Source: a virus (taxonomy: Duplodnaviria; Heunggongvirae; Uroviricota; Caudoviricetes). Taken from it: a DNA stretch of 64,000 bases. The stretch lies in the IMG/VR virus record IMGVR_UViG_3300036770_004943, positions 1-64,000 of that record; one strand, 5' to 3'. A model generated the notes under the pieces. The model had not been told where the DNA came from, searched no databases, and worked only from the letters and a program-made list of their open reading frames with translations. Made by a program: the position numbers and the translations under genes. Of the stretch, positions 5,156 to 44,892 are shown piece after piece (the stretch's first letter is position 1; the number at the start of each line of letters is the position of its first letter).

Positions 5156-6127
5156 ATGAAAATGACACAAAATAAATTAACTCGATTAACTGAGGTTCTT
5201 TCAGTACCGACCCACTCTCGTAATGAAAAACTTATGATTGAGTATTTACAAAAAGTTTTAACCGAAAAAGGTTATGACCATTATACTGACTCACACGGTA
5301 ACATTTATGTAACAAAAGGTAACAGTAAAAATTTTCCTTGTTTTGTTGCACATACTGATACCGTCCACCCAATTAATATGAACATGGTAGTTGTACAGAC
5401 AGAAAGTATTGAAGATGGGGTTATTCTTACCGGTATGGACAAAGTCACTAAAAAGGCTTCAGGTATCGGTGGTGACGATAAATGTGGTGTTTATTTAGCT
5501 CTTGAAATGTTGGACACATTACCAAATGTAAAAGCAGCGTTTTTTGTTTCAGAAGAAATTGGTTGTAAGGGTAGTATGTATGCGGACCCAAAATTCTTTG
5601 AGAATGTTGGTTATGTTATTCAATACGATTCTCCAGGTGGAAACTCAATGAGTTTGACATTAATGGGTCGTTACTTGTTTAATCAAAAATCGGAATTCGC
5701 AGATAAAGTATCGGGTTTAATTAAAGAACATGGTATTACTGATTGGGCATATCATCCGTATACTGATGTTTGGCAAATTATGGAAAAGTTTAACATTGCT
5801 TGTTTAAACTTGGCGGCTGGATATTATCGTTATCATACTGATAATGAATATGTTGTTGTCGATGACGTTCAAAACGGTTATGAACTAGGTTTAAAAATTG
5901 TGACAGAACTAGGTGAAAAGAAATACGAAAACCCAAAAGAAGATAGGTATAATAATTCTTATCTTAAAAAATATACAGGAAAAAGTCTTTTAAATGAAGA
6001 AGAAGAAAAAGATGATAATGATATTTTTAATAGTGGGGAATTTATTTATTCTGAACATAATAAAAAAGATTATGGATACGGTCCATATTATGAAAGCCGT
6101 AATTGGGACGAAGATTATGATTGGTAA
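5156..6127 (+). CDS. M42/M20-family metallo-aminopeptidase-like protein.
   Basis: Motifs FVAHTDTVHP (H-x-D metal ligand), GIGGDDKCGV (bridging Asp, compare A-DDR-G of M42) and FFVSEEIGCKGS (Glu-Glu, compare EEVGLRGA), in the order typical of M42/M20 peptidases. Encoded antisense to the tail genes. Confidence 0.55.
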   Translation: MKMTQNKLTRLTEVLSVPTHSRNEKLMIEYLQKVLTEKGYDHYTDSHGNIYVTKGNSKNFPCFVAHTDTVHPINMNMVVVQTESIEDGVILTGMDKVTKKASGIGGDDKCGVYLALEMLDTLPNVKAAFFVSEEIGCKGSMYADPKFFENVGYVIQYDSPGGNSMSLTLMGRYLFNQKSEFADKVSGLIKEHGITDWAYHPYTDVWQIMEKFNIACLNLAAGYYRYHTDNEYVVVDDVQNGYELGLKIVTELGEKKYENPKEDRYNNSYLKKYTGKSLLNEEEEKDDNDIFNSGEFIYSEHNKKDYGYGPYYESRNWDEDYDW

Positions 6128-6132
6128 AAAAT

Positions 6133-6160
6133 AAAGGGACTTAATAGTCCCTTTTTCGTT
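6133..6160. terminator. Bidirectional hairpin terminator between convergent genes.
   Basis: aagggact-TAAT-agtccctt followed by tttttcg, with a T-run on the opposite strand too. Located between 5156-6127 (+) and 6159-6638 (-). Confidence 0.45.
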
Positions 6161-6638
6161 ATTCGTCTTTTAATCTAACCGGGTATTCAACCCCACCTTT
6201 GTCAAAGTAAGAAATTTCAACCTGATCCAAAGTAGCTGGATAATCACCCCCAAAAATAAAGTCAGACACATCTTTTGGTGTACCGTAAATAGATTCTTCA
6301 TCATAAGAACCTAAACCTAAACCAACACTTTTAGCTATCCTAGAGACATCTTGCCAACGTTCATAACCATTTTTATTATAGGATTCAAATAAAGCAATAT
6401 AAAATTTACAAACATTTATAAATCTTTGAAATGATATATCATCGTCAGATTTAAAAGAGACTTCTTCTCTAAGATAAGAATCACCATATTCCCATGTGGT
6501 TTTCATGACAAACACATTAGCAATCTTTGGTCGATTCATGGGTGTTTGGGAAACCTCAAAGGGTAAATCATTTTGACTAAAATTTAATTCGTCAAACCAC
6601 TCAGATTCTTTTAATATTTTTTTTATTAATACTTTCAT
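6159..6638 (-). CDS. Hypothetical protein (159 aa), N-terminal paralog of the next gene.
   Basis: N-terminus MKVLIKKILKESEWFDELNF resembles MKNIIRKILKEEQDEFEWV of 6601-7077. Confidence 0.6.
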   Translation of the reverse strand: MKVLIKKILKESEWFDELNFSQNDLPFEVSQTPMNRPKIANVFVMKTTWEYGDSYLREEVSFKSDDDISFQRFINVCKFYIALFESYNKNGYERWQDVSRIAKSVGLGLGSYDEESIYGTPKDVSDFIFGGDYPATLDQVEISYFDKGGVEYPVRLKDE

Positions 6639-7077
6639 TTAACTGACTTTCTAATTTTTCGATTCTATCTTTTAATTCTTGGATTTCATCTGCAGCTTCT
6701 TCTCTACCTCTATTATACCCTTCTTCTTCCGCCTCTTCTTTTTCCCTATCTGCGTCTTCATAATAAACATAATCGTCACAACAACCTTCACAAGTACAAT
6801 CGTCACGACCAGAATCATAACCAGAATCACGACCATCATCGTAAACCCTTTCTACTTGGTCATACATTTCCTCACCGATTTCCATTAATTTATCAACATC
6901 TTTAATACCGGCATCAACCATCATATCATAAATGTTAAAAGCATCAAAATTATAGTCACTTTCTATTTTAGCAAAAGGTTTTTTGACAGTTTTTTCAGCC
7001 TCGGAAGTATCAAAACCACGAACCCATTCAAATTCGTCTTGTTCTTCTTTTAATATTTTACGGATAATATTTTTCAT
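6601..7077 (-). CDS. Hypothetical acidic protein (158 aa) with CxC..CC cluster and C-terminal coiled coil.
   Basis: ORF with D/E-rich centre (DDCTCEGCCDDYVYYEDADREKEEAEEEG). Shares the N-terminal MKxxIxKILKE motif with the downstream gene. Confidence 0.6.
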   Translation of the reverse strand: MKNIIRKILKEEQDEFEWVRGFDTSEAEKTVKKPFAKIESDYNFDAFNIYDMMVDAGIKDVDKLMEIGEEMYDQVERVYDDGRDSGYDSGRDDCTCEGCCDDYVYYEDADREKEEAEEEGYNRGREEAADEIQELKDRIEKLESQLNESINKKNIKRI

Positions 7078-7081
7078 TTTA

Positions 7082-7966
7082 TTATAAATATTCAGATAAT
7101 TTGGATTTTACCGAATCAATCGAATCATTTATATCTTTTTCCCAAAATCTTAGTAAGGGAATGTTGTTTTCTTTTGCGATAATATTTTTACGTTCATCAT
7201 TTTCTTTAACAAACTTTTGAATTTCATGGATTGCCTCAGGATGAACATCTGGATTGCAATGAAACCAATCACCATCAACCTCAATTAAAATATTATGTTT
7301 GGGGATATAGAAGTCGTATAGATAACCATTTAAAGGGTGTTGATTAATAAATTGGATATTAAGTTCGATTAATAAATCCTCAAACTTTTGCTCTAGTTTG
7401 GATTTATGACTTGACATTTTATTCTTAAAATAATCTAACCTATTAAATCTTTGTTGGATTTTATTTTCTTCTTTAGACCAATACTCTTTTGACTGTTTAG
7501 AACATTTCTCAACCAATTCATCATATTTTTCTAACCAATTTCTACTTTGAGTTTCTTTAATTTTTCTTTTATGTTCATCAGTTTTTTTATATTTTGAAAC
7601 TGACATACCATATTTTCTAACCCTATCATCAGTGTCAACAGTTAAACCTTTATTCCATATTTTTAATTCACCACTTTCATAAAGTTTTTTTTGGGTTTCA
7701 CCAGCTTTACGATGTGCTTCAGGGTTGTGGCCCCAATTATTATGTACACGAGAAGCGTGACCATGTATGTATTCTCTAAAACCTTCATAAATACCTAAAT
7801 ATTTTGGCCTTTCACCACAACCACAGGCACAAGTAGGTGTTATTCCATTTAAAAAATATTCGATATAAACATCTTCGGCTTTCATTTTATGTTTTAAACG
7901 ACAATGAGCCGATAACCCCTGTGGGTTTGTTAATTCTTGATTACAAATTTTACAAATGTGTTGCAT
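7082..7966 (-). CDS. Putative homing/site-specific endonuclease: N-terminal zinc-finger motifs plus C-terminal Vsr-like (DUF559-type) nuclease domain.
   Basis: N-terminus C-x2-C...H-x4-H (MQHICKICNQ..AHCRLKH) and a second cluster CACGCGE..HGH. C-terminus YLYDFYIPKHNILIEVDGDWFHCNP...IPLLRFWEKDI matches the IEVDG...LRF pattern of the Vsr/DUF559 endonuclease fold. It interrupts the tube-to-chaperone run of structural genes. Confidence 0.5.
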   Translation of the reverse strand: MQHICKICNQELTNPQGLSAHCRLKHKMKAEDVYIEYFLNGITPTCACGCGERPKYLGIYEGFREYIHGHASRVHNNWGHNPEAHRKAGETQKKLYESGELKIWNKGLTVDTDDRVRKYGMSVSKYKKTDEHKRKIKETQSRNWLEKYDELVEKCSKQSKEYWSKEENKIQQRFNRLDYFKNKMSSHKSKLEQKFEDLLIELNIQFINQHPLNGYLYDFYIPKHNILIEVDGDWFHCNPDVHPEAIHEIQKFVKENDERKNIIAKENNIPLLRFWEKDINDSIDSVKSKLSEYL

Positions 7967-8033: not shown

Positions 8034-8522
8034 TCAGAAAACATGAATTGCACGGTCAAATCTTAACGTGCCGGTAATCTCAGCGATATCAGAAGAACTG
8101 TAATCTAATGAACCAAAGTCAACATTTGTTAACATTGTACCTTGAAGAATCCATTTTTCGATTACAACACCTGTTGGGTCAAGTAATTCTAATTCAATAT
8201 CTTTCTTATAACCTGCCGCGTAACCTTGACGACCAGTTACAGATTCAGAATGAAGACGTACCCATTCCATTAAAGCTTGTGCCGCTGAAGGACCAATTGG
8301 GTCGCGGAAAGTAACATCAATAGTATCCCAAGTAAAACGACCAATTACCCAAGTCGAAGTATTTAAGAACTGAATTTCAGTTTCTTCTTGAGAAATTTTT
8401 GGTCTTGATGAAGATTTCACAAACCATTCTTGAATTCCTAATGGTGAAGGAAATCTAAGGATAAATCTGTTTTGTTTTTTCGGTTCGTAAGGAACCGGCA
8501 TCCTCATTAATAAATCTGCCAT
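8034..8522 (-). CDS. Tail tube protein (T4 gp19-like).
   Basis: 162 aa (T4 gp19 is 163 aa). Recognisable similarity to gp19: NRFILRFPS vs PNLFQVEIS, and C-terminus GYKKDIELELLD...W...N.....LD......I..TGTLRFD vs AEYKKSAIVRQY...LWPTNVGELQLDWDSNNEIQTFEVTLALD. Located in the same operon, 3.5 kb downstream of sheath. Confidence 0.7.
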   Translation of the reverse strand: MADLLMRMPVPYEPKKQNRFILRFPSPLGIQEWFVKSSSRPKISQEETEIQFLNTSTWVIGRFTWDTIDVTFRDPIGPSAAQALMEWVRLHSESVTGRQGYAAGYKKDIELELLDPTGVVIEKWILQGTMLTNVDFGSLDYSSSDIAEITGTLRFDRAIHVF

Positions 8523-8548
8523 AATATTTTATTTTTTTAAGTTGTTAT

Positions 8549-8569
8549 CTTTTTATTATAAATATCTGG
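8549..8569 (-). promoter_or_regulatory. Conserved late-promoter-like motif (ATATTTATAATAAAAA on the minus strand) about 30 nt upstream of the tube gene.
   Basis: Minus-strand sequence CCAGATATTTATAATAAAAAGATAACA nearly matches GACCAATATTTATAATAAAAATAACA upstream of sheath. A second copy lies at 8608-8624. Confidence 0.4.
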
Positions 8570-8649
8570 TATTTATAATTTTTTATTTAATATTTTTTGA
8601 CTATTAACTTTATTATAAATATCCTTGTATAAACAAAATTTAAGTTAAT

Positions 8650-9336
8650 ATGACAGAATTTGAAAAATTTGCTATTAAAGACCAAGGTATTGGGTCAAAC
8701 ACGTTGCACAGTTACCAAAACTTTATGTCACAAATACCAACAACCGTTCAAGGTAGTATGACACCTTATGTATTGGAAGAAAGAGAGATGCGAGCGACTC
8801 AGATTGATATTTTCTCACGTTTAATGATGGACCGCCTACTTTGGGTTGCAGGACCAGTTAACGATAGAATGTCAACAGTAGTACAAGCTCAATTACTTTT
8901 CTTGGATCAACAAGACTCTAAAAAAACAATTACAATGCACATTGATTCTCCTGGTGGTTCCGTAAAATCAGGTCTTAGTATGGTAGACGTAATGTCTTAC
9001 ATAAAGGCCCCAATTGCAACGGTTAATACAGGTATGGCCGCATCAATGGGTTCCGTATTGTTAGGAGCGGGGACAAAAGGGATGAGAAGTTCTCTAAGGT
9101 TCTCAAAAACTATGTTACACCAATCAAGTGGTGGAGCAATGGGTAATATTCAAGATGCACGTATTACCATGAAAGAGTGGGAAAAAACCAATGAAATTCT
9201 TTTTGAACTTCTTGGTGAGTATTGTGGTAAAACCGCAAAACAAGTGGCAAAAGATGCCGAACGTGATTTATGGTTATCGGCTGAAGAGGCTTTAAAATAC
9301 GGTATTATCGACGAAATAATTCAATCTAAAAAATAA
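8650..9336 (+). CDS. clpP: ClpP-family (S14) serine protease.
   Basis: HIDSPGGSV, GMAASMGSVLLGAG (Ser nucleophile context GxxASMG), MLHQSSGG (His), LSAEEALKYGIIDEI (Asp), all in ClpP order and spacing. Confidence 0.85.
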   Translation: MTEFEKFAIKDQGIGSNTLHSYQNFMSQIPTTVQGSMTPYVLEEREMRATQIDIFSRLMMDRLLWVAGPVNDRMSTVVQAQLLFLDQQDSKKTITMHIDSPGGSVKSGLSMVDVMSYIKAPIATVNTGMAASMGSVLLGAGTKGMRSSLRFSKTMLHQSSGGAMGNIQDARITMKEWEKTNEILFELLGEYCGKTAKQVAKDAERDLWLSAEEALKYGIIDEIIQSKK

Positions 9337-9340
9337 AAAC

Positions 9341-9607
9341 ATGTTCAGACTATTAATATTTTTTATAATTTTAGGTCTTATTATATTAACAGTATATGCC
9401 GGCTTTAAAATTATTAAATCATTCAAAATACCAAAACCGACCACCACCGAAGAAATAGAATTTTTAATTGAAAAAATTAAAATTAAAATTATGAGAGCGG
9501 AATTGGATCAAATGTCGGGTATTGAAGGTGCAGAAAAAGATTTACAATATTGGAAAGACCAATTGACTCAAACCCAAAAATTAAAAGAAAAAACAAACAA
9601 TTTATAA
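9341..9607 (+). CDS. Small membrane protein (88 aa; N-terminal transmembrane helix plus charged coiled-coil tail).
   Basis: MFRLLIFFIILGLIILTVYAGF hydrophobic segment followed by K/E-rich helix. Sits between the clpP-like and SPFH genes with a 4-14 nt spacing. Confidence 0.5.
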   Translation: MFRLLIFFIILGLIILTVYAGFKIIKSFKIPKPTTTEEIEFLIEKIKIKIMRAELDQMSGIEGAEKDLQYWKDQLTQTQKLKEKTNNL

Positions 9608-9621
9608 ACTAAAAAACAAAA

Positions 9622-10812
9622 ATGGAAACCAAATTACCAATTAAATGGATTACGACAGCAGTTCTTTCGATAATCGGAATTATAGTATTTTTATTTATTA
9701 ACCCTTTTTCATGGAATGACGCTGGACATCGAACCGTGGTAGAACAAATGAGTGGAAATCAATTTGTACAGTATCAACCAGGGATTTATTATTCAGGATT
9801 TTTTTGTAAAACCACAGAATGGCCAAATCAAATTTCTGTATCTTATCAAGATACTACAACTGATATGGAAATGAAAGATGGTACCATTGAAATTGGGAAG
9901 ATTAAAATTCGTTTTGGTGGGGATGCTACAACAGCGGATGTTAGTGGTATTGTACAATATATTTTACCGTCCGATGAAACTGAAATGATTACGATGCATA
10001 ACGCACATAGAACACCACAATCACTCGTGACTAAACGATTAGCGCCTTATACTAAAGAATGTTTACAATCATCCGCACAATTAATGTCTTCTGAAATGCA
10101 TTATTCAGGTGGTAGAGCAACAATGTCCCAAGATTTTGGCGAACAATTACGTGGTGGTGTGTATCTTTTAAAAACAAATGAACTTATGGTTTATGACTCT
10201 TTGGAAAAAGAAAATAAAAGACTGTATGAAACTAAAATTCAAACTGATAAAAACGGTAACCCTGTTCGTAAAATATCTTCTATTAAAGAGTATGGTATAA
10301 CTGTAGCTGACGCTAATATTACGGACGTGGATTATGAAACTCGTGTTGATAATATGTTAGGTAAAAAGATTGACGCGTCTACTAAGGCATCTATCGCAAA
10401 ACAAGAGTTGATTACGGCACAACAACAAGGTTTAACGGCTAAAGCTCAGGGTGAAAAAACCTTAATTGAAACTGAATATAAACAAAAGGTTGAACAAACT
10501 AAATTAGTTGTGGCAGCACAAACCCAAGTCCAAGTGGCTGAACTTGAAACCAAAGCGGCTCAATTACAAGCTCAAAAAACAAAAACTCAGGCGGATGCTG
10601 AATCTTATAAAAACGCTAAATTGGTGGCAGCTGGTTTAACACCACAAGAAAGAGCACAATTTGAAATGGATACTAAAATTGGTGTTGCTAAAGCATTGTC
10701 TGAAGTTACGTTACCATCAACATATATCAACGGTAATACATCAGGTGGTAATAACAACAGTATGTTAGAGTCTATTTTAGGTGTCAAACTACTTGAACAA
10801 AATAAAAAATAA
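9622..10812 (+). CDS. SPFH/band-7 (stomatin/prohibitin/HflK-like) membrane protein.
   Basis: N-terminal TM segment (ITTAVLSIIGIIVFLFI), a roughly 200-aa alpha/beta domain with SPFH-like pattern, then a long A/Q/K/T-rich coiled coil (LTAKAQGEKTLIETEYKQKVEQTKLVVAAQTQVQVAELETKAAQLQAQK) typical of HflK/flotillin C-termini. Confidence 0.55.
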   Translation: METKLPIKWITTAVLSIIGIIVFLFINPFSWNDAGHRTVVEQMSGNQFVQYQPGIYYSGFFCKTTEWPNQISVSYQDTTTDMEMKDGTIEIGKIKIRFGGDATTADVSGIVQYILPSDETEMITMHNAHRTPQSLVTKRLAPYTKECLQSSAQLMSSEMHYSGGRATMSQDFGEQLRGGVYLLKTNELMVYDSLEKENKRLYETKIQTDKNGNPVRKISSIKEYGITVADANITDVDYETRVDNMLGKKIDASTKASIAKQELITAQQQGLTAKAQGEKTLIETEYKQKVEQTKLVVAAQTQVQVAELETKAAQLQAQKTKTQADAESYKNAKLVAAGLTPQERAQFEMDTKIGVAKALSEVTLPSTYINGNTSGGNNNSMLESILGVKLLEQNKK

Positions 10813-10842
10813 TAAAACCTATATATAACAAAAAACCCTTAG

Positions 10843-10872
10843 AATTTCTAAGGGTTTTTTTATTTTATACTA
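10843..10872. terminator. Bidirectional rho-independent terminator between convergent genes.
   Basis: AACCCTTAGAA-TT-TCTAAGGGTT perfect hairpin flanked by A-run and T-run (aaaaaaccc...gggttttttttatttt). Confidence 0.6.
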
Positions 10873-10876
10873 TCTA

Positions 10877-11746
10877 TTAAGAAAGTTCGTAAGTTTTGTT
10901 TGTTTTAGGGTTTTTTAAACTAACAATATTACCTTTATCATCTTTAACTTCTTCAGTGTAACCTTTTTTCTTAAGTTGGTTCACTACCTGTAATCTAGCT
11001 TCGTCTTGTTTTCTTTTATTTTCATCAGATACCGCTGAACCAGTTAAGGCAACACCAGCGATTGCTGAAACAATAGAACCAACCCAAAGAGGATTTTGTA
11101 ATACTGAAGTTAAAACTGAATCTTCACGCATTGTTTTTACAATTGCCTCAGCAGACTCACCTACATAACCTAAACCTGCTAAAGCTGCCATTAATAAACC
11201 AACACCAATTCCAGCTTTATATTTTTTTACAAAACCACCTACACCTTCTTCCATACCTTCCATGTAATCTTTATCACCCATGTTGTCAGTCGCTGCTTGT
11301 TTAGCTGCATTAGTTGCTATTTTTTTAGCCTCTTCTTTAGAGTCAATACCTTTTTTTTCTAACGCTTGTTTAAAATCATTAAGATTAATTTTTTTTATAA
11401 CTTTTTGTAAAGACGCCATTATTTCTTGTTTGGATGGCTGTCCTTCCATTTCTTCCGCTTCTTTAACAACTTTAGCTTTGTTTGTATGCTTAACTTTCAT
11501 ATTAGACATATGTTTTTTAGCGTCAGATGCTTGAGAAAGCTTTTTCTTCATTGGAGTAACAGATGGCATTCCTTCTGATTGGTCTACCATATCTCCCGAC
11601 ATTTTATTTTTAACATGTTTCTTAGCTGCTGCAGCTTGTGAGGGAATCATATCTTTTACAGAAGCTTTTTTAGATTCAATTGAAGCCTCCATTACAAAAT
11701 TTTCAACTATTCTTTCAAGTTGGTCTTTGGTTACTTTATATCTCAT
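10877..11746 (-). CDS. Hypothetical protein (289 aa) with K-rich N-terminal half and C-terminal hydrophobic/Gly-rich segments.
   Basis: Long ORF in the sheath-to-tube interval with two predicted TM-like stretches (GIGVGLLMAALAGLGYVG; VGSIVSAIAGVALTGSAV). Confidence 0.6.
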   Translation of the reverse strand: MRYKVTKDQLERIVENFVMEASIESKKASVKDMIPSQAAAAKKHVKNKMSGDMVDQSEGMPSVTPMKKKLSQASDAKKHMSNMKVKHTNKAKVVKEAEEMEGQPSKQEIMASLQKVIKKINLNDFKQALEKKGIDSKEEAKKIATNAAKQAATDNMGDKDYMEGMEEGVGGFVKKYKAGIGVGLLMAALAGLGYVGESAEAIVKTMREDSVLTSVLQNPLWVGSIVSAIAGVALTGSAVSDENKRKQDEARLQVVNQLKKKGYTEEVKDDKGNIVSLKNPKTNKTYELS

Positions 11747-11758
11747 TTTATTTTATTA

Positions 11759-11965
11759 TTAGTATTTGTAATTAAAAGATGTTAATTTATTAAATCTTTC
11801 TAAATCTTTTTTAATATCCTCGTTAATAAGTTCTTTAGACTCAGTAATAACTTTAGTTTCTTTTTTAGACTCAGTTACAACTTTTTTTGGTTTATTAATA
11901 CCAGCCTTTTCTAAAGTACTTTCAATTAGTACATCAAGGTCTTTCTTTTTAACTATTTTTGACAT
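11759..11965 (-). CDS. Small hypothetical protein (68 aa), K/E-rich.
   Basis: ORF preceded by the conserved promoter-like motif. Follows the sheath terminator. Confidence 0.45.
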   Translation of the reverse strand: MSKIVKKKDLDVLIESTLEKAGINKPKKVVTESKKETKVITESKELINEDIKKDLERFNKLTSFNYKY

Positions 11966-12037: not shown

Positions 12038-14842
12038 TTAGATATTATCGAATGATGCACCAGTAGGTGTTACATTAAACTCGATTATGATAAATTCAAG
12101 TGAAGGTATTGGTTTTAAGAAAATCTTACCTCTCATCTCATTTCTATCAATTTCTTCAGGGTCATTAGATAATTGAACTCTAAAGTCAGCTAAACCTCTT
12201 TCTTTTCTAATGTTATCCAAAATAGGGTTAACTAAGTTTAAGAATTGATTTCTAACAATTTGATCGTTTTGTTCAAATAATAATCTTACACCAACCGCTG
12301 TAATTAATTTACGAGCTTGTAATAACAACCTTCTAATGTTAAGTCTATCAAGAACAGAATCTTTAACTTGTAAGTTTTTATTACCCCAAATTACAACACC
12401 TACGTCAGAGAAAGTTGCCATTGGGTTTACACGTCCTTCGTAAAGTGTGTCTCTATCTTCTTCAGTAAGTTTAAATCTGGCTTGAAGTGCGTTTGTTAAA
12501 CCTCTATTGTAACCAGCTACAGCGTACCAAGGAAATGCTACATTATCAGTTAAAGCGATGTTACGACAAACTTCTAATGTTGGTGGTAACCAAACATTAA
12601 CATTGTTTTCATCGTCTCTTTCTTGAATCCACGGCCAGTATGTGGCTGTATAGTTAGAATCTATATCGGCTGCATCTAATAAATCTATTAAAGATGAGGC
12701 GTCATTTATTGTTACTGAATTAAAACCAAAACCTATTGTATCATCAGTAGTATCGTACTCAACATTTTCAGGGGAAGTTACAATATAAACTGAATCAGCT
12801 CTTTGTTCCTCAATCATATCTATAGTTTCTTGTACTAAATAATTGTTACCTAAAGATAATGATGGGGACCAATCTATACCAGGTGTTGCAAACACATTAA
12901 TATTTACAGCCTCAGGGTTTGCGAAAGTTTTAATATTGTTCCAATAAGCGTATAAATCAGAAGTTCCGTCTTGTGGACCAAGTTGTTGGAATTGGCCGTT
13001 AGCTAAACCTGTGTTAAATCCTGACTTACCGATACGATATCTATCTGTGTTAGTTCTTGAAGTTCTATGACAATCCCATCCGTCAAAACCCCAATAAGGA
13101 ACAAACGTGAATTTTCTTGCCGTAGTACTTTCATATATTGTACCCTCAATCCCAAGAGAGTCTCTAAATTCGGCCTCACCAACTTCAAAATTACCTGCAA
13201 TGGTTGCTCCACTATCCATATGGAATCCTTTAGTTGTTGCCGACCAATATTTATTATCGTCTGTTTTACCTTTCCATTGGAACATGTCAGAATCAATACC
13301 TACTGTATCACTAATACCTAAATAAACTCTTCTAATCCTTTCATTCTCAGGATCGTAAGTTGTTTTGTAGTCAATAAAAGGTGGTAAATAACTTAACTGA
13401 GATGAAGACGAAAATGTTCTACCAACATAATCTCTAACACGATAGCCCTCAAAACCAGCTGGGAAAGCGTCTGACGGTGCGTTATCATTCATAACTACCA
13501 TGATAAATCTACTGTTTAAAGTAAATTCACCATCCGCTGTACCAATTCTTCTTGCTATAAAATTATTAGAATTAGGTTCCATAGTACATTTAGCGTACGT
13601 TTCAAGAATTGAAGGTCTTGCGTCAGTGTCATTAAACTGTCTAACTACGACATCAAATTCTTTTCCGTCTGGATCTATATTTTGAATAGAAATTTTAATT
13701 TCAGTATTTGCTGCAGTACCATCAGAGATTGATACGAATTTAAATAATTTAAATACTTGATTACCACGTAATTCAGATACAACCCAAGGAGTTTCAGGAG
13801 TTTGATATTGTTGTTTATAATTATCTATATTACTTATATAGATTAACTCATCTTTTAAACCTAAAATATAATTGTTATCAATTAAATCTTGTAACATATT
13901 AGGGTAGATTTCTTCTACATAAATTTTTGATGTTTTGTCTGTACAATCTTCACCTAAGACACCAGTTATATAATTTCTACTTGTTCTATCTAATGAAACA
14001 TCATAAACAGAACTAGCACTTAATCCTATAGAATATGCTGATAAAGAAAACTGTGCTAAAGGGTTTGTACTGTTTAAAGACAAACCACCTACTAAACCTT
14101 GATATGACTGATCTGTAGACCATAAAAAGTTATCACTAATATAAGTTCCTCTTGATCTTAATAAAGCCAAAGTTAAACCATCGTATTCTGTATAAGCTGT
14201 TGCTGTATAGGTTGTTACGGTACCAGAAATTGAACCCGAATCACCGGTTATAGTTAATAAACTTATTGTCGTAGAGGCACCAGTAAAGTTAGGATAAGTA
14301 TTACTATCAAAAGTTATACCTTCTGGATATACAGGTGTCACACCAGGTACATCTGTAGTGGTTAATGTAGCACCATTAGGGTATAAACCTAAGTTATAAA
14401 GATATTCTGCATTAGGATCAGTAAAATTATAATAAAAAGTACCACCAGTAAAATCCGCTGTAAATGTTGTGGTTGCACCAGTAACAATAGTGGAAGGATT
14501 GTAATTAGCTTTCGATACGATAGCCCATCCATCACCAGCATCATAACCAGTTAAACCCAATACCCTAGATACAAATAATTGGTTTGATTGTGTTAGGTAA
14601 TATTTAGCAATATATGGAAGTTCGTATTTTGGTTTATTATTACCAAATTTTTCAGGACTTAACCCACCAAAAATTGTTAAAAATTCATCGTAATTTGTAA
14701 TAAAAATCGGTTCAAAAGCCGGACCTTTTAAGGTTTCACCAGCTAAACCTAAAGTTGTCACACCAACTTGTTGTGACACAAAGGTTAAATCTTTTTCTGA
14801 AGTAAAGACACCTGGTGATACAAATATTTTTTGTGAAGCCAT
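12038..14842 (-). CDS. Tail sheath protein (934 aa).
   Basis: N-terminus MASQKIFVSPGVFTSEKD matches the sheath SPGV(Y/F)..E motif. The C-terminal domain has AGYNRG and DRLNIRRL (compare T4 gp18 AGYNRG, DRINVRRL) and DRNEMRGKIFLKP (compare DRNEFVATFYIQP). It is not a capsid protein despite its size. Confidence 0.8.
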   Translation of the reverse strand: MASQKIFVSPGVFTSEKDLTFVSQQVGVTTLGLAGETLKGPAFEPIFITNYDEFLTIFGGLSPEKFGNNKPKYELPYIAKYYLTQSNQLFVSRVLGLTGYDAGDGWAIVSKANYNPSTIVTGATTTFTADFTGGTFYYNFTDPNAEYLYNLGLYPNGATLTTTDVPGVTPVYPEGITFDSNTYPNFTGASTTISLLTITGDSGSISGTVTTYTATAYTEYDGLTLALLRSRGTYISDNFLWSTDQSYQGLVGGLSLNSTNPLAQFSLSAYSIGLSASSVYDVSLDRTSRNYITGVLGEDCTDKTSKIYVEEIYPNMLQDLIDNNYILGLKDELIYISNIDNYKQQYQTPETPWVVSELRGNQVFKLFKFVSISDGTAANTEIKISIQNIDPDGKEFDVVVRQFNDTDARPSILETYAKCTMEPNSNNFIARRIGTADGEFTLNSRFIMVVMNDNAPSDAFPAGFEGYRVRDYVGRTFSSSSQLSYLPPFIDYKTTYDPENERIRRVYLGISDTVGIDSDMFQWKGKTDDNKYWSATTKGFHMDSGATIAGNFEVGEAEFRDSLGIEGTIYESTTARKFTFVPYWGFDGWDCHRTSRTNTDRYRIGKSGFNTGLANGQFQQLGPQDGTSDLYAYWNNIKTFANPEAVNINVFATPGIDWSPSLSLGNNYLVQETIDMIEEQRADSVYIVTSPENVEYDTTDDTIGFGFNSVTINDASSLIDLLDAADIDSNYTATYWPWIQERDDENNVNVWLPPTLEVCRNIALTDNVAFPWYAVAGYNRGLTNALQARFKLTEEDRDTLYEGRVNPMATFSDVGVVIWGNKNLQVKDSVLDRLNIRRLLLQARKLITAVGVRLLFEQNDQIVRNQFLNLVNPILDNIRKERGLADFRVQLSNDPEEIDRNEMRGKIFLKPIPSLEFIIIEFNVTPTGASFDNI

Positions 14843-14867: not shown

Positions 14868-14886
14868 TTTTTATTATAAATATTGG
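14868..14886 (-). promoter_or_regulatory. Conserved late-promoter-like motif upstream of the sheath gene.
   Basis: Minus strand reads GACCAATATTTATAATAAAAATAACATAAAC..ATG. The same 16-mer core recurs upstream of the tube, fiber and other structural genes. Confidence 0.4.
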
Positions 14887-15163: not shown

Positions 15164-15826
15164 TTAGCTAAGTTTTAGTTTAAAACCATAAGCCTTAAAA
15201 TCAAAAGTAGATATAGAACTTATAGATAAATTTAAATTATCTCTGACTCTAAAAATTAATTTATCAGTTGTACCGGACTTTAATCTAATACCACCCACAT
15301 AGTCAGAATCATAACCGTAATTTTTAAAATTAAAAACACCAAAATAACCACCATCGTTACCAGAAAAAACATTATCAATACGAAAAGAATTAGTACCACT
15401 AGCACCATACGCAGGTTTAAAACCAACCATACGTAGTAAGTCAAAATTAGTAGATAAATTATCCGATATTATTATATCACCATTTAAACTATCTTGATAC
15501 AATAATTGACACCCATTTGTTAAAGGAGGGATGTTAGCGAATTCACCTAACTCAGGGTTAACCAATTCGGCAGCAATAAAAAAATTTAAAGACGTTATAT
15601 AAATATCAAAATCCTTTTCCGCTGATATATAAAAATCTTGTGGAGTTGTTGACCCATCCACTTTCATACTATTTGTAACCCCATCCCCGTTTAAAGTTAA
15701 GTAACTACTAAAAATAAATGTTTTATTGTCAGTTAACGGTGGGGAATCAGAGTCTATTTCAAACAGACTGTATTCGGAAACTTTAGATTTTTTATTTTCT
15801 GCAACAATTTTGGCTGATTTTGACAT
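15164..15826 (-). CDS. Paralog 6 of a six-gene tandem family (220 aa). Structural or receptor-binding role suspected.
   Basis: Shares the central and C-terminal pattern (TLNGDGVTNSMKVDG..DFYI..E.D.DIYIT..NF..AAE) with 15834-16481. Same orientation, 7-nt spacing. Confidence 0.6.
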   Translation of the reverse strand: MSKSAKIVAENKKSKVSEYSLFEIDSDSPPLTDNKTFIFSSYLTLNGDGVTNSMKVDGSTTPQDFYISAEKDFDIYITSLNFFIAAELVNPELGEFANIPPLTNGCQLLYQDSLNGDIIISDNLSTNFDLLRMVGFKPAYGASGTNSFRIDNVFSGNDGGYFGVFNFKNYGYDSDYVGGIRLKSGTTDKLIFRVRDNLNLSISSISTFDFKAYGFKLKLS

Positions 15827-15833
15827 AATAATT

Positions 15834-16481
15834 TTAGTTTATTTTTCTTCTAAAACCATACGCAATTGCGTTGAACTCGGTTGTTGCGGCACCACCTGTA
15901 TTATCGTTTATTTCTAAAACCAATCTATTATTAGTGCCGGCAGCCAGCCTCAACCCCCATTTAAAACCGAAATTTCTAAAATCAAAAACGGGTATAAAGG
16001 CTTCACTAGTACCAATAACATTTGTACCTAAAAAAGCAGCAGTACCAGTACCAAATGCTGGTTGCCCTTGACATAAACGAACAAATTCCCAATTAGAAGT
16101 TAAATTCGTACCAATATTAATTTCACCATTACTGTCTTCATAATAAAACCTACAACCATTTGTTAACGCAGGGGAAGTACCAAACTCAGAAAGTGTTGCT
16201 GATACCGCAGCAATTAAAAAAGAAACTGTGGTTATATATATATCATAATTTGGTTCAGCATTTATAAAAAATCTTTCTGGACTTGCTAATGAACCAGCAA
16301 CCCTCATACTAGTTGTTACCCCATCATTATTAAGGGTTAAGAATTCTCTATAAACCGTTATTTTAGTTTCTTCTCCAACTGGAGGATAAGGAGCTTCTTG
16401 TGTGTAAAGAAAACCTTCAGGGGATACTTTAGCTAAGTATCCATTACCCGTACCATCCTCAATATTTGTTTTTATTGACAT
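15834..16481 (-). CDS. Paralog 5 of the six-gene tandem family (215 aa).
   Basis: N-terminus MSIKTNIEDGTGNGYLAKVSPEGFLY carries the family motif I-x-DGTG-x4-KV. TLNNDGVTTSMRVAG parallels paralog 6. Confidence 0.65.
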   Translation of the reverse strand: MSIKTNIEDGTGNGYLAKVSPEGFLYTQEAPYPPVGEETKITVYREFLTLNNDGVTTSMRVAGSLASPERFFINAEPNYDIYITTVSFLIAAVSATLSEFGTSPALTNGCRFYYEDSNGEINIGTNLTSNWEFVRLCQGQPAFGTGTAAFLGTNVIGTSEAFIPVFDFRNFGFKWGLRLAAGTNNRLVLEINDNTGGAATTEFNAIAYGFRRKIN

Positions 16482-16482
16482 A

Positions 16483-17073
16483 TTATGTTTCTAAAGTTTC
16501 ATAAACATTTAATCCTACTGCAACTTGAACCGAGGTGTTTGATGTTGGTGTGACAAACGAAAAACCTACACTAGAACCTTTTGGTAATGTTGCAACTGAA
16601 CTAATAAATGTTATATTTTGTAATGGAACTACTGGACTTCCAAAGACATCTGACGTTGTTGTAAAACCAGCTCCGTTTTGACCCCTTTCAGTAGTAACTT
16701 CTAAAGTATTAGAACTACCAAAATTAAGATTCGGTGTAGTTACTGATACTGAAGTTCCATTAGTCATAGAACCAGGGTTTCTATAGAAAATAAACCTACC
16801 ATGTGTTTCGGTTGTTCCTGCACTATCTTTAACACTTAAATTAATCCTATCAATAACAATATCGTTATTACCATCATTTGTTAAAAAAAGAATTGCACTT
16901 GTTGCTGAAGACCCAGTTAGTGTAACATATCCTGAGTTAACTGTATACGCGTTACCTTCTCTAGCAGCTTCTGCGTATTCTTCTTTTTGTACTGTTTCCG
17001 TGTAAAGTCTATTTCTATAATCTACTTTAACACCAAAACCGCCACCAGTACCATCTGTTATTTCAAATCCCAT
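16483..17073 (-). CDS. Paralog 4 of the six-gene tandem family (196 aa).
   Basis: MGFEITDGTGGGFGVKVDYRNRLYTETV shows the family N-terminal motif. Genes are spaced 1-22 nt apart. Confidence 0.65.
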   Translation of the reverse strand: MGFEITDGTGGGFGVKVDYRNRLYTETVQKEEYAEAAREGNAYTVNSGYVTLTGSSATSAILFLTNDGNNDIVIDRINLSVKDSAGTTETHGRFIFYRNPGSMTNGTSVSVTTPNLNFGSSNTLEVTTERGQNGAGFTTTSDVFGSPVVPLQNITFISSVATLPKGSSVGFSFVTPTSNTSVQVAVGLNVYETLET

Positions 17074-17095
17074 TTTATTTTATTTTAATAATTTA

Positions 17096-17683
17096 TTATT
17101 CAAAGTAAACTTCCATTTCACAAGTTAAATTAAATGTAACACCATTAGGTGGTTCACACGTTACTGCTAATGAACTTCCCTTATCTAACGTGACCGCTCC
17201 ATTCCACATAAACATTAACATTTGTTGATTCCCAACACCCAAGTAATGTCTACCAAAAACATTTCCGTTTGTAACGGTTAAGAAAGTACCATTTCCTTGA
17301 TACGCTAATCCCTCATAATCATTTGAACTACCAAAATTAATGTTTTGAACGTCCGCAGCAATTGCTGAAGAAATTAATGTTCCTGTTGTAGGGTTTTTAT
17401 ACATATTGATTTTGGTAAATTGACTTGCGGTTCCTGACCATAACTTTATGTGATGAATCAACATTTTTTTATCCGAATTATTTTTAATGTATAAAACACC
17501 GTTTTCTTGTCCAGTAACACCAGTAAGAGAAAGAAAGTTGGTTGAAATAACAAAAGTATTACCTACTTCTATTGAATTATACACCGCTCTTTCTTCGGTA
17601 ATACTATCAACAAGTATTCTATTAAGTTCTGTTACTTTTGCTTTTCTACTAGTTCCTGTTCCGTCTTGTATTTGAAAACCCAT
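17096..17683 (-). CDS. Paralog 3 of the six-gene tandem family (195 aa).
   Basis: MGFQIQDGTGTSRKAKVTELNRILVDSI. Confidence 0.65.
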   Translation of the reverse strand: MGFQIQDGTGTSRKAKVTELNRILVDSITEERAVYNSIEVGNTFVISTNFLSLTGVTGQENGVLYIKNNSDKKMLIHHIKLWSGTASQFTKINMYKNPTTGTLISSAIAADVQNINFGSSNDYEGLAYQGNGTFLTVTNGNVFGRHYLGVGNQQMLMFMWNGAVTLDKGSSLAVTCEPPNGVTFNLTCEMEVYFE

Positions 17684-17702
17684 TTTTTATATTTTTAGTT
17701 TT

Positions 17703-18296
17703 TTATAAAATTATATCACTTAAATAAACTTGAAATCCTGTATAAATTTCGTTTGAGGTTAATCCGTATTGTTGATAAGTTACCACAACTGACGAACCTT
17801 TTTTCAATATAATTTGAACAGTTCCAAAATTTCGTTGAGCAGTACCTTGTGTTTGATATAACACTGGAGTGTTGTTATAACCTGAAACAGTAAATCCGTC
17901 ACCACCCTTTTTAACACCAACATTTAATTCATTTGAAGAACCTATCAATCTGTTTACAGGTGTTAAATCTGTACCAGAACTAATTATTGTCCCTGTTGTT
18001 GGATTTGAGTAAACCCTCATCAAACTTAATCTTGTTGCGGTTCCAGAACTATTATCCGTGCCAATAAACCAAGCGGATAATATTAAATCTTTTTCTTCGT
18101 TATTTTTTAAGTATAAAAGTGGTGTTTCTGATGAACCAGTTACGGTTATAAATTCTGTGTTAATATTGTAAGCTTCACCTTTTGATGTTGCATGGTCAAA
18201 TTCCGATTCAGTAATAGATTTAACATATAACCTATTTTCAGAATCAATTTTAACCTTATATTTTGTACCTGTTCCGTCTTGTATTGTAGTTGCCAT
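17703..18296 (-). CDS. Paralog 2 of the six-gene tandem family (197 aa).
   Basis: MATTIQDGTGTKYKVKIDSENRLYVKSI. Also contains NFGSSN, shared with paralogs 1, 3 and 4. Confidence 0.65.
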   Translation of the reverse strand: MATTIQDGTGTKYKVKIDSENRLYVKSITESEFDHATSKGEAYNINTEFITVTGSSETPLLYLKNNEEKDLILSAWFIGTDNSSGTATRLSLMRVYSNPTTGTIISSGTDLTPVNRLIGSSNELNVGVKKGGDGFTVSGYNNTPVLYQTQGTAQRNFGTVQIILKKGSSVVVTYQQYGLTSNEIYTGFQVYLSDIIL

Positions 18297-18301
18297 ATGT
18301 T

Positions 18302-18895
18302 TTAAATATTAGTTAATTTAGTTACAGTTAGACTAAAACTAACTGGCATTTGTACATTACCTGATGGTGGTGTTATTGCTAACAAAATACTAACACCTTT
18401 AGGGAATACTAAATTCGCCGAAACTTGGTTGTACACGTTAACTGGAAAAGCTAATTGAAATGTAGGGGTTAAACCTGTAAATCCACCAGCACCTGTGGGC
18501 GAACCATACTTAAACGTACCATCCAAACTATTGGAACTACCAAAATTGGTGTTTAGAGGATTAAAATCTACCCAAGTTCCAGTTAAAGAAGATTCGTTAA
18601 CATTTTGATAAACATTCACTAAATAATTTTGGAATGTTGCACCCGATGCCCATCTAGCTTGTGAAGAAAAAGATTTTGAAAATAAAGAAACATCCTCCTC
18701 AAATTTAAAGTATAAAACACCATTTGCAGTGTCACTAGTTTGGGTTAAGAAAGGAGTACCAATGACGTAAGTATCACCATTAATAGCTCCCTCAATTTGA
18801 CTGTCTTCAACAACACCCCTAACTTCAAGTCTATTGGTACTATCTACTTTGGTTGCAAAACCTTTTCCTGTTCCGTCTTCTATAATTGTTGCCAT
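18302..18895 (-). CDS. Paralog 1 of the six-gene tandem family (197 aa).
   Basis: MATIIEDGTGKGFATKVDSTNRLEVRGV, plus NFGSSNSLDG. Confidence 0.65.
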   Translation of the reverse strand: MATIIEDGTGKGFATKVDSTNRLEVRGVVEDSQIEGAINGDTYVIGTPFLTQTSDTANGVLYFKFEEDVSLFSKSFSSQARWASGATFQNYLVNVYQNVNESSLTGTWVDFNPLNTNFGSSNSLDGTFKYGSPTGAGGFTGLTPTFQLAFPVNVYNQVSANLVFPKGVSILLAITPPSGNVQMPVSFSLTVTKLTNI

Positions 18896-23277: not shown

Positions 23278-23296
23278 TTTTTATTTTATAAATATG
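23278..23296 (-). promoter_or_regulatory. Conserved late-promoter-like motif directly upstream of the 704-aa fiber gene.
   Basis: Minus strand reads CATATTTATAAAATAAAAA-ATG. Confidence 0.4.
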
Positions 23297-38623: not shown

Positions 38624-39322
38624 TTATAATCCATACCTACCTTTATGTGTATTATAATTTTGTAATACTTCCGATGGTGATAATGATTTATTACTATAAA
38701 TTCTAACTATAGGAATTCTACCAAAAAATTGTGTATCCCCAGCAGTCCTATTACCAATTTTCGCTGTTATACCTAAATCACTCCAAAGAAAATTAGTTCT
38801 TGTTTGTGATGTATTTTCTACACCATTAATATATATTTTTACATTATTATTATTTTTCACCACAACTATATGGTACCAAGTATTTAATAATATCAATGAA
38901 GTGCTACTTACCACTGGATTCATGTTAGGACCTCCATCTCCACCAATAAAAAAATTACCCCCATTCGCTACCGCCATAACGGTTGAATTTATATTAAATA
39001 TTGTATCTATACCTAATATGTTTGACCTAAAACTAGTCCCTAAACCAGTTCTATAAATCCAAGTTTCTATAGACCAATTACTAAAATTATTTAAATTTAA
39101 TAAAATATTTTTATCTGTCTGAGCGTATTCCCCATTAAAAACTAAACTACCCATATTATTATTACTAAAGGTAGGTTGACTACTTAAAGTCCAATCTTTT
39201 AAATTAGAACTTAAATCAGACCAAATAAGACCAGAACCAGGGTATGATTTAATGTTAGCGGTGTCTAAACACAAAACTAAACCATCGGTTACAATATTCC
39301 CACCACCTTGTGTTGTACTCAT
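38624..39322 (-). CDS. LamG/concanavalin-like domain protein (232 aa), paralog A.
   Basis: VTDGLVLCLDTANIKSYPGSGLIWSDLS..., WYHIVVVKNNNNVKIYINGVE, RIPIVRIYSNKSLSPSEVLQNYN. Laminin_G_3-type pattern. Confidence 0.6.
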   Translation of the reverse strand: MSTTQGGGNIVTDGLVLCLDTANIKSYPGSGLIWSDLSSNLKDWTLSSQPTFSNNNMGSLVFNGEYAQTDKNILLNLNNFSNWSIETWIYRTGLGTSFRSNILGIDTIFNINSTVMAVANGGNFFIGGDGGPNMNPVVSSTSLILLNTWYHIVVVKNNNNVKIYINGVENTSQTRTNFLWSDLGITAKIGNRTAGDTQFFGRIPIVRIYSNKSLSPSEVLQNYNTHKGRYGL

Positions 39323-39588
39323 AATGTCATTGGATCTGGGTTAGTCCATTCTGGAGTTGATAATATTGTTAATATTTCTTCGTATGAAAATGGACCTTCT
39401 TTAGTTGTTAAACTATCTACCGATGAAGGAACTCCTTCAGTATTCCATTTAACAAATGTTTTTGTTTCATCAACCGATTTTCTTACCGTGTCAATTGAAG
39501 TTTCACATACTTGAGTGAAATCGATATTTGATAGTTCACTAACATCAAATATCATAAATTTTCTGTTTTCGTATAATTGTTTTTCCAT
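39319..39588 (-). CDS. Small hypothetical protein (89 aa).
   Basis: ORF between LamG paralogs, 4-nt overlap with downstream gene. Confidence 0.4.
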   Translation of the reverse strand: MEKQLYENRKFMIFDVSELSNIDFTQVCETSIDTVRKSVDETKTFVKWNTEGVPSSVDSLTTKEGPFSYEEILTILSTPEWTNPDPMTL

Positions 39589-39592
39589 ATTT

Positions 39593-40294
39593 TTATAAAT
39601 TAAATCTTCCTTTTAGTGCATTGTAGTTTTGAAGAACTTCTGACGATGTAAGTAATCTATTATAAAACTTAGTGGTCGATACTCTGCCGTTAAAATTAAA
39701 ACTCCCCACTCCGTAAGCGCAAATTTTAGAAGTTGAATTACCGCCAAAAGTGCCTGAAGCGGTGTCAGTATATATTAAATTACCATTAAGATAGAGTGAT
39801 GAAACAGAACCATTTCTGGTTATGGTTATCTCAAAAAACTGATTTATTGGGTACCAACTACTCCCTAACTCAGTACCGATAGATAATATTTTACTACCAC
39901 CATAAACATTTATAGCCGCATTCGTGGTAAGTTGTCCACCAGTACCCGGACCTAGGGCTAACGCTCCGGTATTATTACCACCTAAGTCTTGAACATATTT
40001 ATAAGTTCTATCTAATTTATATAACCAATACGAAATGCTAAAAGCGTTTGACCCAAAATTAAAAGATGGTATTGAAACATAATCATTAGTCCCATCAAAA
40101 ACAATAGCACCTCCATTATCACCATTCCATATGGTTTGAGAACCAAAATTAGTTAAAGTACCATTATTCCCATTACCACTTAAATCTCCCCATAAAGTTC
40201 CTGTTCTTGGATAAGAATCTTTTTTACCGGCATCTAAATGTAATACTAGACCATTTCTTACTATACCTCCGTAATATGATATTCTTCCTGACAT
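39593..40294 (-). CDS. LamG/concanavalin-like domain protein (233 aa), paralog B.
   Basis: RNGLVLHLDAGKKDSYPRTGTLWGDLSGNGNNGTLTNF is the classic Laminin_G_3 N-terminal motif. C-terminus LTSSEVLQNYNALKGRFNL. Confidence 0.65.
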   Translation of the reverse strand: MSGRISYYGGIVRNGLVLHLDAGKKDSYPRTGTLWGDLSGNGNNGTLTNFGSQTIWNGDNGGAIVFDGTNDYVSIPSFNFGSNAFSISYWLYKLDRTYKYVQDLGGNNTGALALGPGTGGQLTTNAAINVYGGSKILSIGTELGSSWYPINQFFEITITRNGSVSSLYLNGNLIYTDTASGTFGGNSTSKICAYGVGSFNFNGRVSTTKFYNRLLTSSEVLQNYNALKGRFNL

Positions 40295-40299
40295 AATTT

Positions 40300-44870: not shown

Positions 44871-44892
44871 TTATTTTTATTTTATAAATATC
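44871..44892 (-). promoter_or_regulatory. Conserved late-promoter-like motif upstream of the 1281-aa fiber gene.
   Basis: Minus strand reads GATATTTATAAAATAAAAATAA-ATG. Confidence 0.4.

Follow-up and report, generated by a model that had tools for sequence, protein, structure and literature searches.

A Cellular-Type ClpP Gene and a Probably Separable Small Membrane Protein–SPFH Gene Pair Between the Tail Tube and Tail Sheath Genes of a Caudoviricetes Phage

HflK/C and prohibitin are SPFH proteins that partner membrane AAA (ATPases associated with diverse cellular activities) proteases. In archaea, a long NfeD protein pairs a ClpP-class protease with a stomatin (PMC13086221). Both kinds of gene, ClpP and SPFH, have previously been annotated in phages: jumbo phages are known to carry cellular Clp genes (PMC6102473), and SPFH open reading frames (ORFs) have been listed in phages since 2006, in T4-like and Vi01-like genomes (PMC1524935, PMC3220722). 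Furthermore, large aquatic phages whose predicted hosts are Bacteroidota reportedly have both a ClpA-like ATPase and a gp21-type prohead protease among their core genes (PMC12619734). Here, we analyzed 64,000 nucleotides (nt) of a Caudoviricetes phage (positions 1 to 64,000 of IMG/VR record IMGVR_UViG_3300036770_004943; this whole stretch is called the window), in which the two kinds of gene occur in one short cassette. The ORF list gives three + strand genes in a row, namely, a ClpP gene (8650–9336; 228 amino acids (aa)), a gene for an 88-aa bitopic membrane protein (9341–9607), and a gene for a 396-aa SPFH/Band-7 protein (9622–10812). The gaps, read from the sequence, are 4 nt between the first two genes and 14 nt between the last two, and the trio is enclosed by tail tube and tail sheath genes on the − strand.

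An earlier interpretation of the letters alone (hereafter the sequence-only reading) had these coordinates, strands, and spacings exactly right, and Pfam and PHROGs matches confirm its statement that the trio is opposite in strand to the flanking tube and sheath genes. It went on to propose that the trio follows the logic of NfeD–stomatin operons. Our analysis leads to a different view. We consider it reasonably probable that the locus consists of two separable modules, ClpP and the small membrane protein–SPFH pair, which share one transcription unit in a common variable accessory slot between the tube and sheath genes.

The first line of evidence comes from the relatives of ClpP. An IMG/VR search with this protein gave at least 597 matches, of which 80, with identities of 70–97%, were kept; linkage to SPFH was judged at the locus level, with flanks of up to 10 kb. 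Among the matches listed, ClpP lies between the tube and sheath genes on the opposite strand in 32 related loci, in which the tube is 83–99% identical to that of the window and the sheath, where present, 62–81% identical. What follows ClpP in these syntenic loci varies. The closest ClpP relatives among the matches listed (95–97% identical) have a multi-pass membrane protein of 95–100 aa there instead, one lineage has two small two-pass membrane proteins, and in several loci a lipoprotein gene follows, sometimes joined by one for a small membrane protein. Pfam searches with these alternative cargo genes returned only a lipobox and weak, sub-threshold matches. No same-strand gene follows ClpP at all in seven syntenic loci (L009, L014, and L017–L021). 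Most syntenic ClpP loci are without SPFH, and the small-protein–SPFH pair follows ClpP in three lineages among the matches listed: the window, L002/L013, and L086/L087/L094. ClpP is the fixed resident of the tube–sheath slot, and its downstream cargo turns over.

The second line of evidence comes from the relatives of the SPFH protein, a family of 1302 proteins at an expectation value (E) ≤ 1e-5. Its 120 best clusters are 59–91% identical to the window protein and lie on contigs of up to 318 kb. ClpP was absent within 5 kb in 36 of the 37 IMG/VR loci that carry an SPFH homolog. We saw three SPFH contexts without ClpP, one with T4-type portal and gp13 genes, one with a sulfotransferase, and one with a 240-aa ORF and small ORFs, and directly upstream of SPFH all three encode a homologous partner of 78–90 aa with an N-terminal anchor and a helix-prone tail. 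An alignment of partners upstream of SPFH (alignment A1: L001, L002, L083, L086, and L089) shows that a homologous protein of 72–93 aa is encoded directly upstream of SPFH in L001, L083, and L089, where there is no ClpP. A homologous small partner is, moreover, found upstream in most loci in which the SPFH identity is at least 52%. A neighbor-joining tree of SPFH proteins does not group the three ClpP-adjacent lineages together but intersperses them with lineages that lack the adjacency. Because the pair occurs without ClpP at most SPFH loci and the cargo after ClpP varies, the conserved unit is the small protein plus SPFH, not the trio. The co-occurrence of the trio in related phages, which the sequence-only reading had raised, is thus not a conserved feature: nearly all the SPFH loci have no ClpP within 5 kb, and the cargo differs in the closest relatives.

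A more distant SPFH lineage (32% identity, on a 197-kb contig) has another kind of upstream partner, a PspC-domain membrane protein (Pfam, 64 bits; L125:4633–4818 and L126:1977–2162). This partner hints at a membrane-stress theme for phage SPFH genes.

The mobility of the pair also fits an alternative, in which the two genes form an envelope superinfection-exclusion or anti-defense "moron" that is unrelated to proteolysis and came to lie after ClpP by chance. The post-ClpP slot holds interchangeable small membrane proteins and lipoproteins, a typical pattern for accessory genes of the exclusion type; the pair changes position between genomes; and in a Vi01-like phage an SPFH ORF adjoins an annotated superinfection exclusion gene (PMC3220722). 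On the other hand, exclusion genes usually evolve faster than the strongly conserved SPFH protein appears to have done, given the identities across its 120 best clusters, and the PADLOC defense-system profiles matched none of the four proteins tested. We regard this alternative as unlikely. It overlaps with the explanation by two separable modules, from which it differs only in the purpose of the pair.

What kind of protein is the SPFH product? Its Band_7 match (Pfam PF01145, residues 34–269) scored 28.4 bits against a gathering score of 23.6, many of its homologs carry a precomputed PF01145 match, and PHROGs places it in phrog_11908 (1.7e-44), a family of unknown function. The protein divides into an anchor (residues ~9–27), an SPFH domain (~28–240), a long helix (240–336), and a Gly/Asn-rich C-terminus. 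The full-length AlphaFold2 model was mediocre (predicted local distance difference test (pLDDT) of 64.5), with an N-terminal helix, a mixed alpha/beta domain, and one helix at 240–336; its ten best Foldseek matches were all SPFH cage proteins, with weak E-values. A model of the domain only (residues 26–245) reached a pLDDT of 81 and a predicted template modeling score of 0.72. In the Foldseek search of the PDB with this model, the top 49 matches were all HflK/C, prohibitin, stomatin, flotillin, QmcA, or vault, and 24 of them had E ≤ 1e-3. The best match was HflK/C (7vhq, E 3e-7), prohibitins (9o9z and 8rrh) were also matched, and QmcA was a weaker match than HflK/C (E 8e-3). A sequence-profile search of the PDB with the SPFH alignment gave no match even at E ≤ 1. 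The sequence-only reading had predicted an SPFH-like domain with an N-terminal transmembrane helix and a long coiled-coil helix, and had tied its case to fold similarity in profile or structure searches; Band_7, AlphaFold2, and Foldseek agree with the prediction, and the SPFH fold was found, as the top 49 matches of the domain-only model are all SPFH-family or vault proteins.

A hydrophobic segment starting at about residue 9 is present in 53 SPFH homologs, in which the N-terminal side of the anchor is positive and the C-terminal side negative. The predicted topology is therefore N-in and C-out, with the SPFH domain in the periplasm, as in HflK/C. The 88-aa protein, which the sequence-only reading correctly described as a single-pass membrane protein, has one N-terminal hydrophobic segment followed by about 60 charged, helix-prone residues, and it has no family match in Pfam, PHROGs, NCBIfam, or PADLOC. 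The charge bias around the anchor of the small partner is opposite to that of the SPFH protein, so the positive-inside rule predicts a cytoplasmic tail.

The ClpP protein matched CLP_protease (Pfam PF00574) with 199.7 bits against a cutoff of 20.2, over profile positions 5–181 of 182, and solved bacterial ClpP chains in the PDB were matched at E ~1e-49. Its best NCBIfam model was NF011091, with 225 bits against an equivalog cutoff of 361; since the match spans positions 1–227, it takes in the Bacteroidota-type N-terminal extension. TIGR00493 scored 192.5 against a cutoff of 308.6. Both scores lie below the NCBIfam equivalog cutoffs, so that under the NCBI rule this ClpP does not count as an ortholog; by its sequence, it is a divergent subfamily. 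When bacterial genomes were scanned, true Bacteroidota ClpPs (Bacteroidales, Psychroflexus, and Olivibacter) were 42–53% identical to it over the whole length. Judged from these comparisons, the protein is a cellular, Bacteroidota-type ClpP.

We then compared 93 ClpPs of the phage clade and 69 of Bacteroidota with E. coli ClpP, using a reference sequence verified against 1tyf. The Ser-His-Asp triad of the window protein is intact, aligned with E. coli S97, H122, and D171, and it is invariant in 93/93 phage-clade proteins; the Bacteroidota proteins all keep Ser and His, and 66/69 of them have Asp. The alignment and the Pfam score support the sequence-only reading in its identification of a ClpP with the Ser/His/Asp residues in place. 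Two departures set the phage clade apart. Y60, Y62, and F82 of E. coli ClpP are docking aromatics, Tyr62 being part of the acyldepsipeptide (ADEP) and unfoldase docking pocket (PMC9765437; 10.1101/2023.03.01.530711). At these positions, the window ClpP has T, H, and Y. The T at position 60 falls within the range of Bacteroidota ClpPs, and the His at Tyr62 is found in all 93 phage-clade proteins versus a Tyr in all 69 Bacteroidota proteins. Similarly, Ser-Ser replaces Pro124-Leu125, beside the catalytic His, in 93/93 of the phage clade, and the Pro is kept in 69/69 Bacteroidota proteins. These changes may indicate an altered unfoldase docking site or substrate pocket.

The bacterial genome scan also had a higher tier, with 58–72% identity, made up of contigs in metagenome-assembled genomes (MAGs) with oddly mixed taxon labels. 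The two of these MAG contigs that we opened (L132 and L137) have phage-like gene content, as do the IMG/VR loci L028, L046, and L047, which carry ClpPs of the same clade. The contigs with phage-clade ClpPs (L132–L140 and L209, from MAGs or single-cell genomes) come from bins labeled Saprospirales, Flavobacteriaceae, Prochlorococcus, Methanobacterium, Gammaproteobacteria, and Magasanikbacteria. They are probably phage contigs that were mis-binned into host genomes.

Many phage ClpP-fold proteins are capsid maturation proteases, and the best PHROGs families of the window ClpP bear the label "head maturation protease" (phrog_94, 2.3e-40). Could this ClpP, then, be a prohead protease displaced into the tail module? 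The scores point the other way: the cellular ClpP model was matched with 225 bits over the full length, including the N-terminal extension, versus 79 bits for the head-maturation model, whose cutoff is 120 (NF045542, 78.8 bits); a second such model, NF045540, scored 81.9 against 475. Both models were rejected as identifications. Identity to Bacteroidota ClpPs and the PDB matches argue likewise for a cellular protein, and at 228 aa the enzyme stands alone, with no fused scaffold or capsid domain. By position, the assignment was also rejected, as the neighbors are the tube, the sheath, and a tape-measure-like protein at the window start, with no head gene recognized among them, and in other phages of the same clade ClpP lies among replication-type genes, not head genes. 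Finally, a gp21-type prohead protease belongs to the core of those large aquatic phages with Bacteroidota as their predicted hosts (PMC12619734); they share several T4-like core genes with the window, and this phage may be one of them. A prohead protease is, on this evidence, hardly credible. The sequence-only reading had likewise argued against a role in capsid maturation, and the scores on the two kinds of model uphold it.

The proposal that the trio is an NfeD–stomatin-like unit is a different matter. In such a unit, ClpP would be drawn to the membrane, where it would process SPFH or the clients of an SPFH microdomain; the recruiting element might be the cytoplasmic tail of the small protein. 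Several observations agree with it: the genes are tightly spaced and share a terminator, their order is identical in the three lineages named above, the tail of the small partner is predicted to be cytoplasmic, and the archaeal pairing of a ClpP-class protease with a stomatin provides a precedent. However, no hydrophobic or membrane segment was found in ClpP, the NfeD oligonucleotide/oligosaccharide-binding (OB) fold domain is absent from both ClpP and the 88-aa protein in Pfam and NCBIfam searches, and ClpP scored 14.6 bits on NfeD1b_N against a cutoff of 40. The seven syntenic loci with nothing after ClpP, the unrelated cargo in the closest relatives, and the 36 SPFH loci with no ClpP nearby all speak against a conserved linkage. 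Furthermore, the SPFH domain is predicted from the positive-inside rule to be periplasmic, away from a cytoplasmic ClpP, and the nearest folds partner FtsH-type proteases, not ClpP. Every testable defining feature of the NfeD–stomatin logic thus failed (anchor in ClpP, OB-fold, and conserved linkage), and we find this proposal quite unlikely.

Candidate signals lie at the two ends of the cassette. The divergent intergenic region between the tube and ClpP genes (8523–8649, 127 nt) is highly conserved in 8 relatives. Toward ClpP, it carries TTGACT (8597–8602), a 17-nt spacer, and TATCCTTG (8620–8627). In the alignment of 8 loci, the TTGAC and TATAAATATC blocks are invariant, and the arrangement of TTGAC, 17 nt, and TATC(n)TTG toward ClpP is kept in all eight relatives. 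The arrangement TTGAC...TAnnTTG resembles the Bacteroidota −33/−7 promoter type (TTTG, TAnnTTTG). The start codons of the trio follow A-rich leaders with no Shine-Dalgarno sequence, and Bacteroidetes usually do without Shine-Dalgarno sequences (PMC9723584).

A different motif precedes the surrounding genes. The octamer ATATTTAT occurs 24 times in the window; 15 of these copies share the orientation of a gene that starts no more than 60 nt downstream, and the genes preceded by it are the tube, the sheath, and 13 others, structural genes included. A longer form of the motif is fourfold enriched over shuffles. With its upstream positions at, for example, 8556–8565, 14874–14883, 23286–23295, and 44882–44891 (range 3994–44946), ATATTTAT(A/G) is likely a late-promoter element of this phage. 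The copies in the tube–ClpP region (8556–8565 and 8613–8622) are both directed at the tube gene, and no copy of ATATTTAT stands upstream of ClpP in its own orientation. We also considered a T4-type late promoter for ClpP and rejected it: the TATAAATA-like copies are the reverse of ATATTTAT, and both face the tube gene. Because ClpP lacks an oriented ATATTTAT and has the conserved host-type TTGAC...TAnnTTG instead, we infer that its unit and the tail genes around it are under different regulation.

The distal, tube-facing copy of the late motif lies inside the spacer of the ClpP-facing TTGACT...TATCCTTG (8597–8627) and is kept in the eight relatives. Given this position within the spacer, the ClpP promoter might be disturbed by late transcription that runs toward the tube.

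At the other end, a scan of both strands for terminators found a bidirectional intrinsic-terminator-like hairpin at 10830–10860, with a 14-bp stem and a folding energy of −16.3 kcal/mol (z = −4.6 versus shuffles). It reads as a terminator on both strands since an A-run and a T-run flank the stem, and it closes both the + strand unit and the converging − strand gene at 10877–11746. The sequence-only reading had placed a bidirectional hairpin terminator after the cassette, which was right in kind; its position of 10843–10872 was about 12 nt off.

Several points weigh against the separation into two modules. The adjacency of ClpP and SPFH in three lineages, one of them with a very divergent SPFH (L002, 34% identity), is more than a single accident and could reflect ancestral linkage or selection for co-expression. 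Nearly all genes that follow ClpP in the relatives encode envelope proteins, which could mean a functional theme rather than a neutral hotspot. In this phage, the trio is almost certainly co-transcribed, to judge from the gaps of 4 and 14 nt and the lack of an internal terminator. The predicted topology of the SPFH protein rests on the positive-inside rule, which is a heuristic. Lastly, a separate prohead protease was not seen directly, the head module being outside the sequence covered.

With these points in mind, two separable modules would work as follows. The first module, the cellular-type ClpP, was probably acquired long ago from a Bacteroidota-like host and is now strongly conserved in a large group of big aquatic phages. 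It would form the usual barrel and act in the cytoplasm with a Clp unfoldase, of the host or phage-encoded, degrading host or phage proteins during infection with no part in capsid processing. The second module, the small bitopic protein and SPFH, is a mobile two-gene unit that is found at many genomic positions in related phages. By analogy with its nearest folds, the phage SPFH protein most likely functions as an HflK/C-like ring: the module would assemble into a ring or cage at the inner membrane, probably on its periplasmic face, and fence off a patch of membrane or a membrane protein of the host, for example FtsH. Such a cage might stabilize or remodel the envelope in a long infection, or exclude other phages. 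The adjacency of the two modules would most likely come from a hotspot downstream of ClpP that collects envelope-protein genes.

A closer coupling of the modules can be imagined, in which the tail of the small protein and the SPFH ring recruit ClpP and its unfoldase to the fenced patch. The result would be a membrane proteolysis platform built by the phage, analogous to FtsH–HflK/C or NfeD–stomatin systems but made from a soluble ClpP, and the change of Tyr62 to His would then mark a non-canonical docking partner. We hold this to be very unlikely.

The borders of the slot are formed by the tube gene on the left and three − strand genes on the right. The gp19-like tube (8034–8522, −) matched phrog_4542 at 2.4e-31 and Phage_T4_gp19 with 21.9 bits, which is below the cutoff of 28.2. 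The right border consists of a conserved protein of 289 aa whose C-terminal half has hydrophobic stretches (10877–11746, −), recognized as an ORF and by synteny; a 68-aa protein (11759–11965, −), recognized as an ORF and by synteny in relatives; and the tail sheath (12038–14842, −), recognized by Pfam and phrog_23. In relatives, the 289-aa and 68-aa proteins have conserved N-termini (MRYKVTKDQLERIVENFVME and MSKIVKKKDLDVLIESTL) and highly variable middles. Two further neighbors (6159–7077, −) have a common KKILKE start. Neither the 289-aa and 68-aa proteins nor the neighbors with the KKILKE start could be assigned to a family.

The tube–ClpP neighborhood is a hotspot. A gene of unknown function, encoding 720–870 aa, lies between the tube and ClpP in many relatives (L003–L007, L015, L016, and L031–L036), and in the window a homing-endonuclease-like HNH/DUF559 gene (7082–7966, −) adjoins the tube gene. 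The tail module holds a second opposite-strand gene, for a 323-aa peptidase (5156–6127, +; phrog_4191, with weak PepT-like matches), and a TATATTTG box that fits TAnnTTTG lies upstream of it. Two tandem arrays were also seen: six ORFs of ~195–220 aa downstream of the sheath (within 15164–18895), and three ORFs of ~235 aa at 38624–41028 that match phrog_24074 and virion structural proteins.

The window starts within a tape-measure-like ORF and contains baseplate, fiber-like, helicase, DNA polymerase, and glycosyltransferase genes; no portal, capsid, or prohead protease gene was recognized in it. Extensions of 10 kb from genes near each window end brought only large structural proteins, PhoH, and further glycosyltransferases, and no head gene was recognized between ~10 kb upstream of the window and its far end. 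Similarly, no prohead protease was found in the 10 kb around the related SPFH locus with the T4-type portal. Taken together, these flanks held tail, baseplate, glycosyltransferase, and PhoH genes. A DNA-level search of isolated phages gave a single weak match, which covers only the ClpP gene of a 634-kb metagenomic phage, and no cultured close relative.

These results are ordinary in kind and should be a useful guide for experiments. They describe two widespread, conserved gene sets of large aquatic phages that probably infect Bacteroidota, namely, a ClpP clade present on hundreds of viral contigs and an SPFH protein with its small partner. Three aspects are new: ClpP is fixed in the tube–sheath slot of this phage group, the small partner and SPFH form a mobile pair, and this pair adjoins ClpP in three lineages only, among the matches listed. 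Since the modules appear separable, they should be studied as two units, ClpP with a Clp unfoldase in the cytoplasm and an HflK/C-like module at the membrane, and little is likely to be gained from looking for an NfeD-type protease–substrate pair. Should the SPFH module indeed enclose a host membrane protease or stabilize the envelope, this would be a new form of phage control over the host membrane.

How does the locus compare with known systems? The ClpP resembles bacterial ClpP of the Bacteroidota type (MEROPS S14) in its full-length fold, its Ser-His-Asp triad, and its N-terminal extension, and differs from it in scoring below the NCBIfam equivalog cutoffs (225 versus 361 bits) and in the phage-clade residues at Tyr62 and Pro124-Leu125. 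Lak phages, 630-kb metagenomic phages, and 350-kb E. coli jumbo phages also carry ClpP genes of a similar cellular type. As in these huge phages and in Agrobacterium phage Atu_ph07, the gene stands alone, away from head genes; a difference is its place in this subgroup, on the strand opposite to the tube and sheath genes that enclose it.

In the SPFH protein, as in HflK/HflC and prohibitin, an N-terminal anchor precedes an SPFH domain and then a long helix; the N-in/C-out orientation predicted from the positive-inside rule would match that of HflK/C. This likeness is structural, the sequence similarity being too low for a PDB sequence match, and any link to FtsH is putative. Unlike HflK/HflC, which are a pair of paralogs, a single SPFH gene was seen at the locus, and its partner is the 88-aa bitopic protein. 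As in the NfeD–SPFH operons (PH1510–PH1511 of Pyrococcus and QmcA–YbbJ of E. coli), SPFH is almost certainly co-transcribed with a small membrane protein, here together with a ClpP-class serine protease (PMC13086221); in contrast to them, there is no OB-fold, the protease is a soluble canonical ClpP rather than a membrane-bound NfeD N-domain, and the linkage is not conserved. Finally, the SPFH/Band-7 ORFs annotated in crAss001, T5-like Vibrio phages such as pVp-1, Sinorhizobium phage phiN3, Aeromonas phages 44RR and Aeh1, RB43, and Vi01-like phages belong to the same domain family and are of similar size. They are distant homologs of the window SPFH (23–29% identity by tblastn), which, unlike them, belongs to a separate conserved subfamily of large uncultured phages, usually with its own small partner gene.

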